This document shows, in pieces, positions 770-53,088 of a stretch of 64,000 bases of DNA. Below the pieces are notes generated by a model. It saw only the letters and a program-made list of their open reading frames with translations. It did not search any database and was not told the origin of the DNA. The translations under genes and the position numbers were made by a program. Positions within the stretch are counted from its first letter, which is position 1, and every line of letters starts with the position of its first letter. This DNA comes from a virus: the IMG/VR virus record IMGVR_UViG_3300042197_004429, positions 96,001-160,000 of that record, one strand, 5' to 3'.

Positions 770-1240
770 TTGCACTTTGAACCTTCGGATAATCGAATAG
801 TAATTTGGGGCATGAGTTGTGTTGGCAAAACTACATTTGCCAACACAATGAAAAGTCACACTTATTATTGTTTTGATGCCCTATTTCAGTGGCATTTAAT
901 TGAAACATTTGGCTTATCAAGTGCAGAAAACTTTAAATATATTCAAAAAACTTGCGATGCAAATAAGTTTGTTATAGACGGCTGGAATTTGGCTGATAAG
1001 AGAGGAGAATTTTTCCCAAAAGGCTGCGTTGTGTATTTGCTTTGGGCACCTTATGAAAAAATTATTTCACAATATAGAGTGCCGGTTTTGAATCATTTAG
1101 AACATAAAAATATGTATAAAAAATGGTATCATGAAATTGATGTTTCTTTTTTCCCAAAAGTCAAATTCTTTTTGAATAACGGAGTCTTCTCAGAAATATC
1201 TAAAAAAGATTATCTTACTTTTTTAGAACATAATCAATGA
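770..1240 (+). CDS. Small P-loop kinase-like protein
   Basis: Walker A-like GMSCVGKTT near the N-terminus; VIDG strand as in NMP-kinase-like folds. TTG start uncertain. Confidence 0.55.
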   Translation: MHFEPSDNRIVIWGMSCVGKTTFANTMKSHTYYCFDALFQWHLIETFGLSSAENFKYIQKTCDANKFVIDGWNLADKRGEFFPKGCVVYLLWAPYEKIISQYRVPVLNHLEHKNMYKKWYHEIDVSFFPKVKFFLNNGVFSEISKKDYLTFLEHNQ

Positions 1241-2180
1241 AGTCCATTCCAAGTTGAAATTCTGGAAATTGCTTGGTTTTAACGGTCGTCATTATCCTCT
1301 CTGCTATTTTTGGTATTTTAAAGAAAGGATCAACTTTTGATGTTATTTCTCTTCGGTGAACTTTTGTTAAACCGGCATTCTCAATAAATTTATCATAAGT
1401 TGCTAAAGGTGTGGTTACCCCTATGCTATCTTCTTCGTATTTTCTTTCGGGTATTAATTTGTTAAGCTCATCTGGGGTAAACACAAGGTGAATATAAGAT
1501 TTATTTAAATGGTGATAGAGATGAGTTGCGTGTTTTGATGTGAAGGGGTGACACCTCATGTAAATCTGCCCGTCTGGTGCCAAAGCATCTTTTGCTTTTT
1601 TCAAAAAATCTATTGGGTTTTCATTTTTTAAATGGTCCAAAACATCAAATATTACAATTACATTAAATGGGCCTTGTGACAAAACCTCATTAAAATTAGT
1701 TGTTAAAAGTAAACCTTCTCTTTTTAAAGATTCCCATTTACTATTCTCTTCGATGTCATACCCTACCGATATTAAAGGCTCATACTCTGCGGCAACATGG
1801 GCAACATGACCTTCTCCACAACCTAAATCTAAAACTTTTAATCCTTTTAAATCTGGTTCGATCATAAGTTCAACTATTCCACGCCCACGCTCCAATTTGT
1901 CATTCTCATTATCTGGGTCGCAAATTAGATTGGGATTAACAGCTTCAGGCCATTTTTCGCTATCAAGTGCTTTTTTAAGTGCTTCAAAACTCTCCAGGTC
2001 TTCACCAGCATATTCAGGAGGTATCTCTGGGCTTTTTTGAGGTGAAACATTATTGGCTTGAAAAGATTGATTTGTTGTTGTGGTTGGAGAGTCGCCATCT
2101 TCCAAAATGGCTTGTTTTAGATCTAATAATCCTTTCATTATCAAATCTATTGTCGCATTAACTTTTTGCATATTTGGCAT
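1215..2180 (-). CDS. Class I SAM-dependent methyltransferase
   Basis: VLDLGCGEG motif I, VGYDI, FNVIVIFDVLDHL, LAPDG. Confidence 0.85.
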   Translation of the reverse strand: MPNMQKVNATIDLIMKGLLDLKQAILEDGDSPTTTTNQSFQANNVSPQKSPEIPPEYAGEDLESFEALKKALDSEKWPEAVNPNLICDPDNENDKLERGRGIVELMIEPDLKGLKVLDLGCGEGHVAHVAAEYEPLISVGYDIEENSKWESLKREGLLLTTNFNEVLSQGPFNVIVIFDVLDHLKNENPIDFLKKAKDALAPDGQIYMRCHPFTSKHATHLYHHLNKSYIHLVFTPDELNKLIPERKYEEDSIGVTTPLATYDKFIENAGLTKVHRREITSKVDPFFKIPKIAERIMTTVKTKQFPEFQLGMDFIDYVLKK

Positions 2181-2235
2181 GTTTACCTCAAATTTTTTAA
2201 TTTGTTTCTATTATTATAGTGATTAATTTTAAAAA

Positions 2236-3054
2236 TTGGATTATTTAGTGATAAATTTAGCAGTTGTTTTAAATGTTCACAACAAACCAGATGTGGTAAG
2301 GGACACAATAGATTCTATACAAACTTTTGCAACTAAAAATATAGTTGTCTTAGTTGATGGTGCTTGTTGGTCCAAAATGAAAAAAGAACCAATGGAAGCG
2401 GCTAAAGTAGAAGGATTTTATCACAACACTCATAAGGCACCATATCGAAACGTCGCACTTTCGTTACAAACAATCACAGATGTTTACCCAGAATCAGATT
2501 GGTACTGTTACACAGAGTACGATGTGCTTTTTGCCTCGGAGAGATTCAAACACAATTTAAAAATGGCAGAGGAAAGGGGGGTATGGATGCTAGGCAATGA
2601 TGGTCGTGTAGACTATGAAAAAATGCCTTTGGTGCAAGCCATGTTTGACAAGCCTTTTAAAAGCATTTATTATTTGCTTGGTTGTTGTTTATTTTTTCAT
2701 AAAAACTTCATAAACAAATTAAAAGAAATTGATTTTTTTAATCGTTTTTTAAATTTGACTAACGGTTTTACTGGAGGGTTTTTTCCTTTTTATAGAGGTT
2801 ACGATCTAAGCGAACATTTATATCCAACAATTTGCAGACACCTTGGCGGCAACATAGGTGTTTTTGCACATTACGAACAATCAGGAAATTGGCACGGATC
2901 TCATAAATTTTTTCCTGTTCGTTGGATGCCGGAAATCGACCCTGTAAAAGAAAATTTTCCCGAAGCTAGCATAATACATCCATTAAAATCTTTTGATCAT
3001 CCAATTCGTGTTCATCATCGTGAAAAGAGGAAAAATGCAAAACTCTCAATTTGA
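2236..3054 (+). CDS. Putative glycosyltransferase (GT-A-like)
   Basis: VVLVDG and TEYDVLF (DxD-like) motifs; glycosyltransferase neighbourhood. Confidence 0.55.
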   Translation: MDYLVINLAVVLNVHNKPDVVRDTIDSIQTFATKNIVVLVDGACWSKMKKEPMEAAKVEGFYHNTHKAPYRNVALSLQTITDVYPESDWYCYTEYDVLFASERFKHNLKMAEERGVWMLGNDGRVDYEKMPLVQAMFDKPFKSIYYLLGCCLFFHKNFINKLKEIDFFNRFLNLTNGFTGGFFPFYRGYDLSEHLYPTICRHLGGNIGVFAHYEQSGNWHGSHKFFPVRWMPEIDPVKENFPEASIIHPLKSFDHPIRVHHREKRKNAKLSI

Positions 3055-3634
3055 AGCAAAAAGTTTAGGAGTCGTTTTTGATTTATCAGCAAGACTCGGA
3101 AAAGAAGGAAAACGAATTGTTGATGTTGTCAAAAAAAACATGATTGATATTGTTAGACAATGTTTAATCGATGGCGAAGACAGCATGTATCTTTACAACC
3201 CTGATTTGATAGATGTTTATTTTAAACATGGAGAGCAAGTTTGTGCTTTAGGAAATTACAATACAGATGGTTATTCGTTTGATCTTTCCATGGCTTTTAG
3301 ACAAACTCTGTATGTCTTAATGTCGGAAGATGACGATTTTCAAAAGTATTTGTTATTTATTACAGATAGGCTCTCGGATGAATTTCCTCTAGAAAAAGCT
3401 TTTAATATTAATAAAAAAGAAAAAATAGAATGCAAGTTCATATTAGTTGGAGTGGGCGATTACTATAATAAAAATATATTAGAAAATTATGCCCAAAAAG
3501 AGAATGCTTTTTATATTCATTTAAACAACCCCGCAGAATTAAAATTCCCCCAAATTAAGGAGTATTTGGATGGCAAAATCCAATCATGTTGCAAGACCGA
3601 TGAACGATGTGAGCTTATTCAACTCTCAAGTTGA
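3035..3634 (+). CDS. Hypothetical protein, possible degenerate vWA domain
   Basis: VVFDLS, LLFITD and FILVGVG strands resemble the vWA order; MIDAS not intact. Start refined to ATG 3035. Confidence 0.35.
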   Translation: MQNSQFEAKSLGVVFDLSARLGKEGKRIVDVVKKNMIDIVRQCLIDGEDSMYLYNPDLIDVYFKHGEQVCALGNYNTDGYSFDLSMAFRQTLYVLMSEDDDFQKYLLFITDRLSDEFPLEKAFNINKKEKIECKFILVGVGDYYNKNILENYAQKENAFYIHLNNPAELKFPQIKEYLDGKIQSCCKTDERCELIQLSS

Positions 3635-4379
3635 TATCATAGTGCCTTTTCATGGTCAATATGATAAAGTGATGAAGTTGATTGATAGTCTTTTTAGATT
3701 GACTAGAAGCAATTATTATCAACTTATTTTAGTAGACGATTGTTCTCCTAATCCAGATTTTATAAGAAATATAGATTTAAATTCTCAAAAAAATTCACAA
3801 AGATTGCGACAAAGAAATGTTGTCAAGGCAATAAGAACTGAGGAGCAAAAAGGTTTTGCTGGTGCTTGCAAAGTCGGTTTCGAATCTGGTGAAAGTCCAT
3901 ACGTTTGTTTTTTAAATTCTGACTGCATTATAGAGGATGCTGGTTGGTTAAAAAACATGGGCGAAAGTTTGCTAAAATTAAAGGCCGAAGGAGTTCGTGT
4001 TGTTTCGGCTGTGACTAATAACCCTGTTGGCGGAGACGCTTCTCAAAAAGGCGAAAGATTCGTTCGAGAAGAAAACGATGTAATTCTTAAAGACGATAGT
4101 TTTTTAAGTTTGTTTTGTTTTATGTGCCACAGAGAGTTGTTTTCTAGAATTGATGGTTTTATTAAAGAATATCCTTTTGGTTATTATGAAGATGAAGAAT
4201 TCGCAGCAAGATTAAAAAAATATAGTTTCAAACAAGCAGTCTGTAAAAGTGCTTATGTTTACCACGAGGGACAGGCGACAGTTCATCATATTTGGAGGTC
4301 GCATCCAACAGCAAGAAAAATTATGGAAGAAGATAACAGAAAACGGTGCATAGAAGACATGAAATTGCTCAAATCTTAG
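3570..4379 (+). CDS. Glycosyltransferase family 2
   Basis: IIVPFH, LILVDDCS, GFAGAC, FLNSD and YYEDEEF motifs. Confidence 0.85.
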   Translation: MAKSNHVARPMNDVSLFNSQVDIIVPFHGQYDKVMKLIDSLFRLTRSNYYQLILVDDCSPNPDFIRNIDLNSQKNSQRLRQRNVVKAIRTEEQKGFAGACKVGFESGESPYVCFLNSDCIIEDAGWLKNMGESLLKLKAEGVRVVSAVTNNPVGGDASQKGERFVREENDVILKDDSFLSLFCFMCHRELFSRIDGFIKEYPFGYYEDEEFAARLKKYSFKQAVCKSAYVYHEGQATVHHIWRSHPTARKIMEEDNRKRCIEDMKLLKS

Positions 4380-10090: not shown

Positions 10091-10119
10091 AAAAGCCCAA
10101 CCTTGTGTTGGGCTTTTTT
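10091..10119 (+). terminator. Rho-independent terminator
   Basis: aaaagcccaac-cttgt-gttgggctttt followed by T-run. Confidence 0.85.
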
Positions 10120-39280: not shown

Positions 39281-40438
39281 ATGGAATACTATCAATGGCA
39301 AACGATGATTGATGAACATCGTCGGATTCATCGGCAAGATAGAAAAAGAGTTCGCAATCTAACGGATGCTCAAATTAAAAATATTGAGATGGAGAACATT
39401 CTATCTACTCCATTCAACAAAGAGTCAAATCGCTGGCGGAGAATGATTCGCTTGATGGGGGAAAATGTTTGGATCAATGCTGGTAAGCCTTACTACAACA
39501 TTCACCCACAAATGGTTAGATCTCTTTGCAACACTAACTTGGATAAGATACCAGCAAACTTAATAGAAGTTCCAGCGGGCTTAGAAGCGGTGGTTTTCAG
39601 ATTTGCTGAGAACGTCCCTGATCGTTTTATAACAAACAATGGATTTCATGTGGTTTCAGCAGAAGAGGTTCGTCATTCGCCAATTTATTGTAGATCAGTT
39701 TTGTTTGGTAAAATAAAGAATGATAGATCAAAACACGTTGCTGAAAACATAAAGAAAACTACTACAGAGTTTCTTCGATCAATTAATATGCCATCCCTAA
39801 ATGATAATGTAAAAGCCATTATAGACTTGGCTTCCGATGGATATTATAAAGACGTTGATGATTTCATGATAATGTGTGTTGATGAAGGCTTTAGAGTTAA
39901 AGATCGTGGTGTTGATAGAAGTTTGTGTAACTTAATTTGCATAAATTGTAAACATGGTCAGAGTGTTTCAGAGGCAATACAATCTACTGTGGAGCAAGCC
40001 TCTGCTGGTGAACAGGCTGTTATGGTCACTATGGGTGATCGTTTGTCGAACTTGATTCGTGTGATTGTTTCTGCTGGTTTTTTGGCGAACTGTCCTGAAG
40101 ATGATTTGGTTGTTCCCGATATTTTGAGTGCTGATAAACAAAGTTTCAAAGATGCCTCGCAACGTGGAGATGCGGCGGCAATTCAAACTATTGTTGAGCG
40201 TGCAAAAAGACGAGGTAAAAATGGTTACAATATTGGAACATCAGAGATGTTCGTATCAGAGAATGAATCTGAACAGCACAAACAATACGACAGCAGCGGA
40301 AAACAATTAAGTTTTAGTCACTTACGTGGTGGTCATCCTCATGCTGTTCGTTATGGTGAAGGAAAAAACAAGGTAAAAATCAAATGGTTTAGACCAACTA
40401 GAGTCAGGCCAGATTTGCCTTTTAAAACATCCGAATAG
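39281..40438 (+). CDS. Hypothetical phage protein
   Basis: 385 aa ORF; C-terminal HLRGGHPHAVRYGEG..K.KW..P. Confidence 0.7.
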   Translation: MEYYQWQTMIDEHRRIHRQDRKRVRNLTDAQIKNIEMENILSTPFNKESNRWRRMIRLMGENVWINAGKPYYNIHPQMVRSLCNTNLDKIPANLIEVPAGLEAVVFRFAENVPDRFITNNGFHVVSAEEVRHSPIYCRSVLFGKIKNDRSKHVAENIKKTTTEFLRSINMPSLNDNVKAIIDLASDGYYKDVDDFMIMCVDEGFRVKDRGVDRSLCNLICINCKHGQSVSEAIQSTVEQASAGEQAVMVTMGDRLSNLIRVIVSAGFLANCPEDDLVVPDILSADKQSFKDASQRGDAAAIQTIVERAKRRGKNGYNIGTSEMFVSENESEQHKQYDSSGKQLSFSHLRGGHPHAVRYGEGKNKVKIKWFRPTRVRPDLPFKTSE

Positions 40439-40443
40439 TTGCT

Positions 40444-40869
40444 ATGGAAAAAAATCTTTTACCAAAAGAAGAACTAAATCGTTATAAGCAATTTGCTTTT
40501 AAAGACGATATGTTCAAATTGGCTATAGGTTTCATTCTAGGTAACTCTTTTAATAATGTTGTTGGTGGAATCAGCAGTTTTCTGATCATGCCGGTAGTTA
40601 ATTTTTTAACCATTCAAACAGGAGAAAATTGGAGAACAATTGTTTTTTCTCCTGTCAGTGGTTTAAATTTTGAATTAGGAAAACTTTTAGGAACCTTTGT
40701 AGATTTTTTATTAACATCTATTGTTCTTTATGTCATTTATGTAAAAATTTTGGGATCTATAAAAAAACAAGATGAAGGTTGTGATTTAAAACAATGCAAT
40801 CGGTGTTTGAGTCTGATACACATAAATGCCACAAGGTGCAAATTTTGTACTAGCCCAATTAAAAAATAA
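40444..40869 (+). CDS. mscL: Large-conductance mechanosensitive channel with C-terminal Zn ribbon
   Basis: FKQFAFK..M..LAIG.ILG..F..VV....S..IMP; FVDFL; CNRC..ATRC..CTS. Confidence 0.85.
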   Translation: MEKNLLPKEELNRYKQFAFKDDMFKLAIGFILGNSFNNVVGGISSFLIMPVVNFLTIQTGENWRTIVFSPVSGLNFELGKLLGTFVDFLLTSIVLYVIYVKILGSIKKQDEGCDLKQCNRCLSLIHINATRCKFCTSPIKK

Positions 40870-40953
40870 CGCCCGGCATAACCGAGTCCGAGCGGCTGAT
40901 TTTCCATTTCAAAAACAATTTATCGAGGACTTCGGTTAATGCCGTTGTTCTCT
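40864..40953 (-). mobile_element. Integron attC recombination site (90 bp)
   Basis: Minus strand: R'' AGAGAAC, 5 nt, L'' CATTAACC (8 nt), central region, L' GGTTATG (7 nt), 6 nt, R' GTTATTT. Two extrahelical bases lie on the R''-L'' arm. Confidence 0.85.
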
Positions 40954-41176
40954 GACTCGTGAGGGAAAGCCATGTGTGATGACAGCGTAATTGACGATGA
41001 TGGAGATCGGCAAGAGTGGGATTCCGGTCCGTTCTGCCGTCACTGGAGTGATCCGTCAGACTGCGAGGAACTGTGCAAGTGCGGGCACAAGTGCTGTAAG
41101 CACGCTTATGGCGAGGATTGCACTGTAGATGACTGCAAATGCGACGGATTTGAGGACGCAGAGTAGAGTCAGAGAA
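40870..41176 (-). mobile_element. Solitary integron gene cassette (307 bp)
   Basis: Cassette start GTTCTCTGACT (minus strand, 41177-41167) is the exact 11-bp complement of its R'' region (40947-40957). The element is bounded by AAC at 40868-40870 and 41175-41177. Confidence 0.8.
40972..41166 (+). CDS. Small acidic Cys-rich protein (cassette cargo)
   Basis: 64 aa with 10 Cys and 3 His; GAGGG SD; visibly more GC-rich than its flanks. Confidence 0.7.
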   Translation: MCDDSVIDDDGDRQEWDSGPFCRHWSDPSDCEELCKCGHKCCKHAYGEDCTVDDCKCDGFEDAE

Positions 41177-41177
41177 C

Positions 41178-42191
41178 ATGAGAAAATTAGCATCAATACA
41201 AACTATTAAATTTGTTAGACCCATACCAAACGCAGATGCAATTGAGTGTGTCGGTGTTCTTGGTTGGGAATGCGTGTGTAAAAAAGGTGAATTTCAAAAT
41301 GATGATAAATGTGTTTATTTTGAAATTGATAGTTTGTTGCCAGAGATGGAAGTATTTGAATTTTTAAGAAAAAGTTGCTATAGAAAAGATCTGAATAAAT
41401 TCAGGCTAAAAAGTATTAAGTTGCGTCAGCAATTAAGCCAAGGTCTTGCTTTACCTTTGAGTTTATTTCCTGAGTTATACCATCTAGAAGTCGGCACAGA
41501 CGTAACTGATTTGCTGAATGTTGAAAAGTACGAGCCACCAATCCCTGCTCAAATTCAAGGTGATGCCAAAAAGTTTGTTTGGCCTATTGCAAAAACAGAT
41601 GAGGTTAGAGTTCAAACTGACGAGGGGCTTGCTTTAATTTCTAATCTTGTTGGCCATCCTTATTATGTTAGTCTTAAATTAGATGGAACAAGTTGTTCTT
41701 TTGTTATTGATCCATCCGACAATGAATTTCATGTTTGTGGAAGAAACTATAGTTACAAGCACAAGCCAAATCATAGTTTTTGGATTATAAACGAACGATA
41801 CCAACTAGAAGAACGCTTGAGATCAATCGGTGGCAACTTGGCACTTCAAGGAGAGTGTGTGGGTCCAGGAATTCAACAAAATAAACTTGGATTACCCATT
41901 ATTGATTATTACGTTTTTAACGTGGTTGACACATCAAATCGAAAAAGATTATCGCTTGAAGATTCTTTAAATGTTACAAAAGAACTTAAATTAAATTTTG
42001 TTCCAATACTGGAAAAGGGCGATTCATTTAATTACAACATGGAACAGTTGCTTGAAAAAGCAAAAGGAAAGTATCGTGAACATTTTGAGAATGCGAAGCA
42101 GCATCAAGAACGTGAAGGAATAGTGATTCGAAGTTTGTGTGGATCAGTTAGTTTCAAAGCCATAAATAACGAATTTCTCCTACAGGAATAA
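41178..42191 (+). CDS. RNA ligase, DRB0094/Rnl2-like family
   Basis: MRKLASIQ..PIPNADAIE..LGW..VYFEIDSLLP; KLDGTS; QGECVGPGIQ; EGIVIR; FKAINNEFL. Confidence 0.92.
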   Translation: MRKLASIQTIKFVRPIPNADAIECVGVLGWECVCKKGEFQNDDKCVYFEIDSLLPEMEVFEFLRKSCYRKDLNKFRLKSIKLRQQLSQGLALPLSLFPELYHLEVGTDVTDLLNVEKYEPPIPAQIQGDAKKFVWPIAKTDEVRVQTDEGLALISNLVGHPYYVSLKLDGTSCSFVIDPSDNEFHVCGRNYSYKHKPNHSFWIINERYQLEERLRSIGGNLALQGECVGPGIQQNKLGLPIIDYYVFNVVDTSNRKRLSLEDSLNVTKELKLNFVPILEKGDSFNYNMEQLLEKAKGKYREHFENAKQHQEREGIVIRSLCGSVSFKAINNEFLLQE

Positions 42192-42192
42192 T

Positions 42193-42801
42193 ATGTCTAT
42201 CACAGTCATCGGTGACGTTCACGGTAATTACGCACCATATCACAAAATTGTGCGTCAAAAAGATCGTCACCCATACACCGTTCAAATTGGTGATTTTGGT
42301 TTTGAGTATGAAACATTAAAAAATGTTGATGCCAATAATCATAAAGTTATTGGTGGAAATCACGACAATTATAATAAAATTATTGATACTCCTCATTATT
42401 TGGGTGATTTTGGAAATGTTTCTTTAAACGGTGTGAACTTTTTCTTTTTGCGTGGCGCATATTCTATTGATCAACAATATAGAGTGATTGGTAGAAGTTG
42501 GTGGCCCGAAGAAGAGTTAAACAACGATAGTTTTAATGAAGCTATGAATTTGTATGTTGAAACAAAACCAAAAATCGTTTTAACACACACTTGTCCTTTG
42601 TCAATTGTTCCTCAACTTTTGCCAGCAGGCAGTCATTTGTTAAAAAGCAAAACAGAGATGATGCTTGAAAGTATGTTGAACTTGCATCAACCCGAACTAT
42701 GGATATTCGGACATTTTCATGTTTCCAAAACAATAACTCAAACTTTAAACGGAACACAGTTCGTTTGTTTGAATGAATTAGAAACTTACAAGTTAGGTTA
42801 A
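42193..42801 (+). CDS. Calcineurin-like metallophosphoesterase
   Basis: IGDVHG, IGDFG, GGNHD, THTCP, FGHFH. Confidence 0.92.
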   Translation: MSITVIGDVHGNYAPYHKIVRQKDRHPYTVQIGDFGFEYETLKNVDANNHKVIGGNHDNYNKIIDTPHYLGDFGNVSLNGVNFFFLRGAYSIDQQYRVIGRSWWPEEELNNDSFNEAMNLYVETKPKIVLTHTCPLSIVPQLLPAGSHLLKSKTEMMLESMLNLHQPELWIFGHFHVSKTITQTLNGTQFVCLNELETYKLG

Positions 42802-42803
42802 AA

Positions 42804-43313
42804 ATGTCACTTATAGTTGTTGATGTTGAAAGCGACGGGCCAGTTCCTTGCGACTATAGCATGATATGCTTTGGAGCAGTTATTTTTGACGAAAGTTTAA
42901 ATAAAACTTTTTACGGAAAAACAAAACCTATATCGAATAATTACCAGGAAGACACATTAAAAATTAGTGGTTTTACAAGAGAGCAGCACGAAACTTTTGA
43001 TGATCCATATAATGTGATGGTCCAATTTAGTTATTGGATAAAAACAAACAGTGTTGGAAAACCGGTTTTTATTAGTGATAACCCTTGCTATGATTGGCAG
43101 TGGGTAAACTATTACTTTCACCATTTTGTTGGAGAAAATCCTTTCGGATATTCTGGTCGCAGAATTGGCGATTTGTTTTGCGGAATGAAGGGTGACGCAA
43201 GAGCGTCTTGGAAACATTTGCGAAAAACTCTTCACGACCACAATCCTGTAAACGATGCGATAGGCAATGCCGAAGCATTGCTTGAAATGAAGAAAATGGG
43301 TCTAAAAATTTGA
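42804..43313 (+). CDS. DEDDh 3'-5' exonuclease (RNase AS-like)
   Basis: VDVESDG, YDWQW, HDHNPVNDA. Confidence 0.85.
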   Translation: MSLIVVDVESDGPVPCDYSMICFGAVIFDESLNKTFYGKTKPISNNYQEDTLKISGFTREQHETFDDPYNVMVQFSYWIKTNSVGKPVFISDNPCYDWQWVNYYFHHFVGENPFGYSGRRIGDLFCGMKGDARASWKHLRKTLHDHNPVNDAIGNAEALLEMKKMGLKI

Positions 43314-52503: not shown

Positions 52504-53088
52504 TTGTGTTTAACCAAATATCCAAAAATCAGTGGGTTGAGCATCAAAAAAACTATGAGAAGCAAAAAAAGTAGTCTTGGACCAATTTTAAGTTTTGTTG
52601 AGGTTGCTCAAAATCGAGGTTGGAAATACGTTCCATGTATGATTGTTCAAAACGGTCGCAGAGTTTGTAATCCAGAAGCGATTCGTTTGAACGACGGAAT
52701 ATATGCTACCATTGTTAGTCCAGATGGTGTCACTAAGGTTGCCTTGGATCACACTTTGATATATTATCACAATGGTAATGTTTGGCGAGGAGACCCAACC
52801 GATGTTAGGCAAAATTTAATTATATTTGCTGCTTTGGTTGTTGAACAAAGTCACCGCAAAAGCGGTCATGCGACTCACGCAATGAAAAAATTGTTAGAAA
52901 TTGCCAATGATCTCAATATGGTTGTTATGTTAGAAGCGTCCCCGATTCAAAAATTTTCTTCAAAAACTAAAAACATCACACAAAAAAAGTTGATACGTTG
53001 GTACAAAAAATTAGGATTCGTAGCAGCGTATCCCAATCAAGGCGAACAAATACTTTGCCACCCCGCTCCTCCAGTGGATACTAACTAG
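52504..53088 (+). CDS. GNAT-family acetyltransferase
   Basis: LVVEQSHRKSGHA (R..G.A) and LIRWYKKLGF. True start probably downstream of 52504. Confidence 0.75.
   Translation: MCLTKYPKISGLSIKKTMRSKKSSLGPILSFVEVAQNRGWKYVPCMIVQNGRRVCNPEAIRLNDGIYATIVSPDGVTKVALDHTLIYYHNGNVWRGDPTDVRQNLIIFAALVVEQSHRKSGHATHAMKKLLEIANDLNMVVMLEASPIQKFSSKTKNITQKKLIRWYKKLGFVAAYPNQGEQILCHPAPPVDTN

Follow-up and report, generated by a model that had tools for sequence, protein, structure and literature searches.

How did a 307-bp segment with the layout of an integron gene cassette come to lie between two genes of a freshwater phage? The segment occupies positions 40870-41176 of a 64-kb window, by which we mean the whole stretch of DNA analyzed (positions 96,001 to 160,000 of IMG/VR virus record IMGVR_UViG_3300042197_004429). 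The full record, referred to below as G000, is 177 kb long, 74% complete and about 35% guanine plus cytosine (GC). An earlier note on this DNA had described a solitary cassette with a complete attC site between the phage mscL and rnl genes, and all of the sequence features on which it relied were found where it had placed them. Our analysis favors the same reading, and we put the probability that 40870-41176 is a single integron gene cassette inserted in a phage genome at roughly three in four (0.74). The insert and its neighbors are as follows.

40870-41176, AA|C at both ends on the + strand (G|TT on the minus strand): inserted cassette, 307 bp (C...A), delimited by two empty-site alleles and by GC content
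40972-41166, + strand: cargo open reading frame (ORF) of 64 aa, preceded by GAGGG, with an acidic N-terminus and a Cys/His-rich sequence (GPFCRHW...CxCGHxC...CxC)
40444-40869, + strand: phage mscL-like gene, left flank of the target, stop codon at 40867-40869 (Pfam MscL PF01741, 9e-16)
41178-42191, + strand: phage RNA ligase gene (rnl), right flank of the target (PF21189, PF09414, phrog_968)

The GC content of the insert is 54 to 57%, compared with 22 to 40% in its flanks. On the + strand the insert contains the one 64-aa ORF and, upstream of it, an imperfect hairpin (40874-40944) bordered by AAATAAC (40864-40870) and GTTCTCT (40947-40953). A length of 307 bp holding one ORF and one attC, with no promoter-like site detected within it, agrees with the few hundred base pairs expected of a cassette. 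The unit is present once in the 177-kb record.

Empty-site alleles and the limits of the insertion

The earlier note had predicted that removal of the insert would restore an mscL-TAA-C-ATG-rnl junction. An exact 26-mer of this predicted junction was found once in IMG/VR, in IMGVR_UViG_3300023179_000009, a diverged 459-kb phage (record G154; the locus is termed L122). At L122, mscL abuts rnl as TAA-C-ATG with no insert. By blastn, nucleotide identity between the window and this relative was 88% over mscL (L122 4719-5145) and 82% over rnl (L122 5143-6165), and the two aligned segments overlapped by AAC, which corresponds to both 40868-40870 and 41175-41177 of the window.

A second empty allele was found in a near-identical strain. 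In X4, a freshwater metagenome from another study, one contig runs from 40867 straight to 41175. It lacks exactly 307 bp, matches the flanks without mismatch over 288 and 109 bases, and has a joint that is ambiguous over 3 nt. The filled allele was recovered in an independent assembly, a 36.8-kb Logan contig at a depth of 16 from the probable source sample; thus, the insert is not an artifact of one assembler. Two further runs (X3 and X5) left the insert uncovered. The X3 contigs end at 40867 and resume at 41180, perhaps because assembly broke where the site is polymorphic, although such a gap proves nothing.

The locus is therefore polymorphic for presence and absence of the insert, as the search for an empty site suggested in the earlier note had anticipated, and the two empty alleles independently set both ends of the insert within AAC, where an integron integrase cuts. 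Because the site is empty in a near-identical strain as well as in a diverged relative, and because the composition of the insert is foreign, gain in the lineage of the window is the parsimonious direction of change. We regard the insertion as recent.

A second indel was observed in the neighborhood. About 3.8 kb of the relative (L122 938-4718), between the homologues of window positions 40427 and 40444, is missing from the window. At L122 2067-2103 the first 37 nt of mscL recur exactly, and the indel is flanked by a direct repeat. Searches with the surrounding sequence gave little else: among GenBank phages, blastn of 39281-43313 reached just two huge-phage records, at 65% identity across 10% of the query, and the RNA ligase alone, used as a query in viral contigs, found no related loci.

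An attC-type hairpin at the left end of the insert

The left end of the insert carries a hairpin with the layout of an attC site, whose parts are listed below.

40864-40953, top strand = minus: attC site, 90 nt, from R'' to the hybrid R' box (arm alignment; covariance models R1 and R2)
40953-40947, minus strand: R'' box AGAGAAC (sequence)
40870-40864, minus strand: hybrid R' box GTTATTT, its G (40870) cassette derived and its TTATTT (40869-40864) from the phage target
40874-40889, + strand (recombining): L' side of the stem (CGGCA, TAACCG, AGTCC), paired with 40927-40944
40927-40944, + strand: L'' side of the stem, with two extrahelical bases at about T40932 and A40939 (arm alignment; model R2)
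40890-40926, no strand assigned: AT-rich variable terminal loop, unpaired or weakly paired in the fold and an insertion in model R2
40947-40958, + strand: R'' box GTTCTCT with a 5-bp extension, GACTC, forming the left arm of an inverted repeat (repeat search)
41166-41177, + strand: right arm of the inverted repeat (GAGTCAGAGAAC); read on the minus strand, the cassette start G|TTCTCTGACTC, complementary to its own R''

Read along the minus strand from 40953 to 40864, the order is AGAGAAC, AACGGCA, a bulged T, TAACCG, a bulged A, AGTCC, the loop, GGACTCGGTTATGCCG, GGC and GTTATTT. The two bulges are separated by 6 bp, and either base of each TT or AA doublet could be the bulged one. Both boxes carry the AAC/GTT triplet (AGAGAAC and GTTATTT), and the native partner box, GTTCTCT, stands at the start of the cassette. 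The TTATTT part of the hybrid box overlaps the mscL stop codon, and L122 has the same AAAATAAC at its empty site.

The earlier note had also pointed to an 11-bp reverse complement between the cassette start and R''. The complementarity exists, and its length had been understated: the perfect inverted repeat is 13 bp (40946-40958 and 41166-41178), of which 12 bases are internal to the cassette. The 13th base pairs with the A of the rnl ATG, probably by chance.

The strand assignment of the hairpin was compared with 16 reference cassette arrays lying beside integron-integrase genes, each oriented from intI. These arrays were found through TIGR02249 matches over the cut-off in genomes from the order of a Nitrosomonadales metagenome-assembled genome (MAG) described below. 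According to the rule of Bouvier et al. (PMC2727003), the R''-L'' arm carries the extrahelical bases that set the recombining strand. In attCs selected from the integrase-linked arrays, an ad hoc arm aligner placed the bulge pair (one base, 6 bp, one base) on the R''-L'' arm in 23 cases and on the other arm in none. In the window, the bulges lie 8 nt after R'' and 6 bp apart, the same register as in 23 of 23 selected attCs. Since they fall on the arm read first (5') along the minus strand, that strand is the attC top strand. It follows that the box cut is the R' box and that recombination uses the + strand as the bottom strand (5'-AGAGAA|C), which is canonical integron chemistry. Model matches in the integrase-linked arrays fell on the expected strand in 116 cases and on the opposite strand in 4. 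The earlier assignment of the attC top strand to minus, with the ORF antisense to it, agrees with both comparisons.

Two covariance models were built from integrase-linked arrays, R1 from 23 attCs and R2 from 133, and gave the following matches at the window site.

R1 (23 attCs), 40864-40953, minus strand: 10.4 bits, E 4.1 per 64 kb
R2 (133 attCs), 40864-40953, minus strand: 13.4 bits, E 0.7 per 64 kb

For both models this site was the only full-length match in the 64 kb, with exact ends and on the minus strand. In the R2 alignment, R'', the 8 nt, the first bulge, the 6 bp and the second bulge fall on the consensus columns, column for column. The R' end of the match coincides with the insertion boundary. 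By hand estimate, the chance of such a coincidence is about 5e-5, given three matches of at least 13.4 bits in 128,000 strand positions and two admissible configurations. As a test of a pre-specified 307-bp insert, the match is suggestive.

Two other candidates from these scans were rejected. The top matches of R1 and R2, at 10095-10113 and 52793-52810, are palindromes of 18 to 19 nt in which the interior of the model is deleted. The first of them consists of GCCCAAC, 5 nt and GTTGGGC, followed by a T run; it is an intrinsic terminator of the ordinary kind, whose arms resemble paired R boxes. Over the whole of records G000 and G154, R1 gave no match at E<=10. A pattern for the exact hairpin of the window attC was not found in viral contigs. 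An Rfam scan of 40000-42000 returned chance-level small nucleolar RNA and small RNA matches only, none near the gathering threshold, and no attC-type family.

Homologues of the cargo gene in genuine attC arrays

The earlier note had proposed looking for the cargo ORF in bacterial cassette arrays, and members of the cargo family were found in real arrays. Five loci that carry cargo homologues were classed by R1 as genuine attC arrays.

L036: 4 attCs on the minus strand, E 3e-9 to 6e-7; cargo antisense; cassette of about 319 bp
L028: 3 attCs on the minus strand; cargo antisense; cassette of about 292 bp
L083, from a Nitrosomonadales MAG: 6 attCs on the minus strand; cargo antisense; cassette of about 280 bp
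L005: 3 attCs on the plus strand; cargo sense; cassette of 308 bp
L024: 1 attC on the plus strand; cargo sense

Three of these (L036, L028 and L083) reproduce the layout of the window unit and are close to it in cassette size. Read in the sense of the ORF, each cassette runs C, attC, GTTxxxx, ORF, xxxxAA, so that the same arrangement of attC and antisense ORF recurs in real arrays. In L005, every cassette shows a complement of 10 to 12 bp between its first bases and its own R'', and the 12-bp complement of the window cassette falls in the same range; this is the property behind the inverted repeat in the window.

Antisense ORFs are the minority arrangement. Of 71 cassettes that could be assigned in the integrase-linked arrays, 7 were antisense and 64 sense, with 22 more ambiguous, and the cassettes neighboring the cargo in L083 are mostly sense. 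The L083 array itself (954-4255) is a cluster of attC sites lacking integron-integrases (CALIN): nothing in its MAG matched an integron integrase above the cut-off, and no such match was found in any of three MAGs with cargo homologues. No support was found for an origin in Planctomycetota, which the earlier note had put first among the bacteria to search; the samples come from freshwater metagenomes, and the MAG that holds one of the arrays belongs to Nitrosomonadales.

The cargo gene and its family

The cargo gene is codirectional with mscL and rnl and antisense to the attC. Homologues numbered 5 in a large protein collection, 13 in IMG/VR, 63 on metagenome contigs and 3 in MAGs. They form a family of at least 56 distinct proteins, in whose alignment 12 columns, including 7 Cys and 1 His, are invariant. 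The family is described by the pattern GPFCRHW...C...CxCGHxC..H...C...CxC, in which G-x-F-C-x-H-W and six further Cys are invariant. The members are small acidic proteins, frequent in phage contigs of freshwater, soil and groundwater metagenomes. Most lie in ordinary phage neighborhoods, near portal and capsid genes, in a block of DNA polymerase A, UDG and PDDEXK genes, or in a Thy1-ParB block.

The cargo protein gave no match to Pfam, PHROG or PDB sequences, and searches of the ESM Atlas returned sub-threshold clusters of viral hypothetical proteins only. An AlphaFold2 model built from 51 sequences had a mean confidence (predicted local distance difference test score, 64.5) too low to support a search by fold. 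The protein is absent from the 459-kb relative. Judged by its conserved Cys and His residues, our best guess is that the cargo is a small zinc-binding protein. Since its gene is codirectional with mscL and rnl, it is likely expressed by read-through from the phage.

Related attC sites in phage contigs

Siblings of the window attC were sought with the pattern GAAC, 6 to 7 nt, CATAACC ... GGTNNATGCCRTT (the CATAACC...ATGCCRTT type). One further viral contig, the 25.6-kb L123, carried such a site, which scored 25.1 bits with R2 (E 6.5e-4). It belongs to a group of three attC-like sites on one strand of L123 (1687-2777; 25.1, 17.2 and 11.1 bits with R2). Small ORFs lie antisense to these attCs, and a 9-bp complement joins a cassette start to R'' (GTTCGTCGG and CCGACGAAC).

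The closest homologue of the cargo protein (81% identity) is encoded on L002, a phage contig with portal and capsid genes. The order there is the cargo ORF, the same AGTCAGAGAAC box, a hairpin of the CATAACC type, another ORF and a second, paralogous attC; this second attC scored 19.6 bits with R2 (E 0.011). The two-attC array spans 826-1296, has antisense ORFs and bears TTT in place of GTT in one box of the first attC. The cargo gene sits directly behind a phage gene and has no attC of its own. L002 is thus a small phage-borne array in which the attC belonging to the cargo has been lost, leaving a fused cassette.

Route of insertion and competing explanations

Several observations weigh against a cassette mobilized by an integron integrase. 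The absence of an integrase, which the earlier note had recorded for the window, extends to the whole 177-kb record: with 74% of the genome represented, there was no match to PF00589 or TIGR02249, and so no complete integron. The 459-kb relative likewise encodes no integron integrase and no tyrosine recombinase of any kind. The attC scores are weak (10.4 and 13.4 bits, compared with 20 to 77 bits for array attCs), and a whole-genome scan by itself would not call the window attC. Its boxes depart from the extended consensus RYYYAAC/GTTRRRY, AGAGAAC being RRRRAAC and GTTCTCT being GTTYYYY. An A/T base (T on the top strand) takes the first bulged position, where G/C is usual. The hairpin is no more stable than shuffled sequences (DNA fold z = -1.1 and -1.8). 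Finally, about 75 of 82 loci with cargo homologues are ordinary phage genes with no attC.

On two of these points the literature is informative. Only the triplet is stated to be required (PMC10127599; PMC2811028), and the identity of the first bulged base is of little importance and non-essential (PMC2727003). With R1 and R2, the covariance-model check suggested in the earlier note gave a full-length match that has exact ends on the expected strand but a weak score, expected by chance 0.7 to 4 times per 64 kb.

We infer that the cassette entered through a circular intermediate, under the action of an integron-type recombinase. On this model, the cassette would enter the phage genome as a circle whose attC folds on one strand, here its bottom strand (the + strand of the window). 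Acting in trans, a tyrosine recombinase of the integron type, most likely the IntI of the infected host, would cut at AGAGAA|C and exchange strands with the phage AAATAA|C where mscL meets rnl. This target is a secondary site of the G|TT type and not an attI. Replication would fix the 307-bp insertion. The left box would become a hybrid that reads GTTATTT along the minus strand, with the original GTTCTCT box of the cassette ending up at the far end, a displacement that would account for the 12-bp inverted repeat. With no second full site and no integrase nearby, the cassette would then be stranded.

The acting enzyme would have been supplied in trans because no tyrosine recombinase was found in G000, in the 459-kb relative G154 or in G155, the record that contains L123. 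A bacterial IntI is the simplest candidate, and secondary-site insertion requires just GNT/GTT (PMC10127599). Of the insertion at a secondary GTT site by a host IntI proposed in the earlier note, the insertion of a cassette at G|TT is borne out by the empty alleles and the AAC joint, and IntI itself is the presumed agent.

The same hairpin-bounded cassette might instead have been moved by a small Xer-like tyrosine recombinase belonging to a phage-borne, integron-like system. The low model scores of this attC type keep a recombinase other than IntI as the main competitor: the window attC and its siblings in L123 and L002 lie at the low end of the IntI-trained model (13 to 25 bits), their boxes are off consensus, and sites of the CATAACC type turned up only in viral contigs. 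In one phage-like contig (L004 1982-3035), moreover, the gene for a 294-aa Xer-like tyrosine recombinase is followed directly by a cargo homologue, with an overlap of 8 nt between the two. However, that contig has no attC-like site nearby, and the lack of a tyrosine recombinase in G000, G154 and G155 tells against a phage-encoded enzyme as well. Cargo homologues occur in arrays with textbook GCCTAAC/GTTAGGC attCs, one of them in a Nitrosomonadales MAG, and the geometry of the window attC is exactly that of IntI substrates. We consider this explanation unlikely.

Less likely still is that illegitimate recombination at AAC microhomology during coinfection copied in a fragment of an array from another phage, in which case the attC would be real but would not have mediated the insertion. 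Phage contigs L002 and L123 do carry related attC arrays, the flanks of the 81%-identical cargo in L002 are permuted differently with ends that are not at G|TT, and Qi et al., in their discussion of phage CALIN boundaries, also raise illegitimate recombination (PMC9892861). Against this, both ends of the insert fall exactly at the limits of one complete cassette (on one side at AA|C within the R' box, on the other at AA|C following the complement of the R'' box), and the fragment is exactly one circle equivalent with a 12-bp complement between start and R''. A random fragment would seldom show both properties.

A non-integron hairpin element, such as a miniature inverted-repeat transposable element or an IS200/IS605-type palindrome-associated element, or an assembly artifact is very improbable: single-strand transposons likewise insert beside a short fixed motif with subterminal hairpins and no target duplication, but here the two ends, GCCCGG... 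and ...CAGAGAA, show no relation to each other and form no terminal inverted repeats, only one hairpin and a single genome copy exist, homologous units sit in attC arrays, and the insert was reproduced in the independent Logan assembly.

Relation to known systems

The closest precedent for a cassette at a secondary site is aadB in pIE723, a derivative of RSF1010 (Recchia & Hall 1995; Segal & Elisha 1997; as cited in PMC10127599 and PMC4889954). Both cases show a single complete cassette placed precisely at a non-attI site of the G|TT type, with a hybrid R' box and no integrase nearby. The aadB cassette is expressed from transcription of the recipient, as the window cassette would be if the orientation of its gene is a guide. 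The recipient here is a large, probably virulent, freshwater phage and not a plasmid; the cargo is not a resistance gene but encodes a small Cys/His-rich protein antisense to the attC; and, unlike the pIE723 event, this one is a natural polymorphism with filled and empty alleles.

In the sections on phage elements, Qi, Rajabal, Ghaly, Tetu and Gillings (2023) report integrons, CALINs and attCs in temperate and virulent phages and find that IntI1 recombined 5 of 6 phage attCs (PMC9892861). The window resembles their phage CALINs in that integron sites and cassettes lie in a phage with no integrase. Their search required at least two attCs, and that part of their paper describes no empty-site allele or insertion junction. 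By contrast, the window offers one cassette, its target and the exact crossover point. With one full-length attC match, it also falls short of a CALIN defined by at least two attCs within about 4 kb, and single attCs are dropped as possible false positives in IntegronFinder practice (PMC4889954).

The window ORF, like the antisense cassettes of sedentary chromosomal integrons, runs antisense to the attC top strand, an orientation found in a minority of cassettes (7/71). Unlike those cassettes, it has no promoter of its own that we could detect, and its expression would need read-through.

The principle is not new: reports of secondary-site insertion go back to 1995, and those of integron parts in phages to 2023. 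The route for gene flow from integrons to phages that the earlier note had drawn from this locus is supported by it but had already been published (PMC9892861). What is added here is a solitary cassette in a large phage together with its target and both natural alleles, and a cargo family common to phages and arrays. Published phage cases are arrays with no known insertion history, and single attCs are normally treated as noise; here, a natural before-and-after pair shows the same phage with and without one cassette, exactly 307 bp apart at AAC. This is the clearest kind of evidence that phage DNA undergoes integron-type recombination in the environment, and that cassettes can join a phage operon one at a time.

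The locus also ties a widespread, uncharacterized family of phage proteins to the cassette pool, which points to gene traffic between phages and integrons in both directions. It is possible, though at present doubtful, that large virulent phages routinely take single genes from the cassette pool and feed phage genes into it, through the integron integrases of their hosts acting at bare GTT sites. If so, the antisense Cys/His-rich cassettes would be phage genes, perhaps with a role in anti-defense, that shuttle among phage genomes, phage attC arrays and bacterial integrons.

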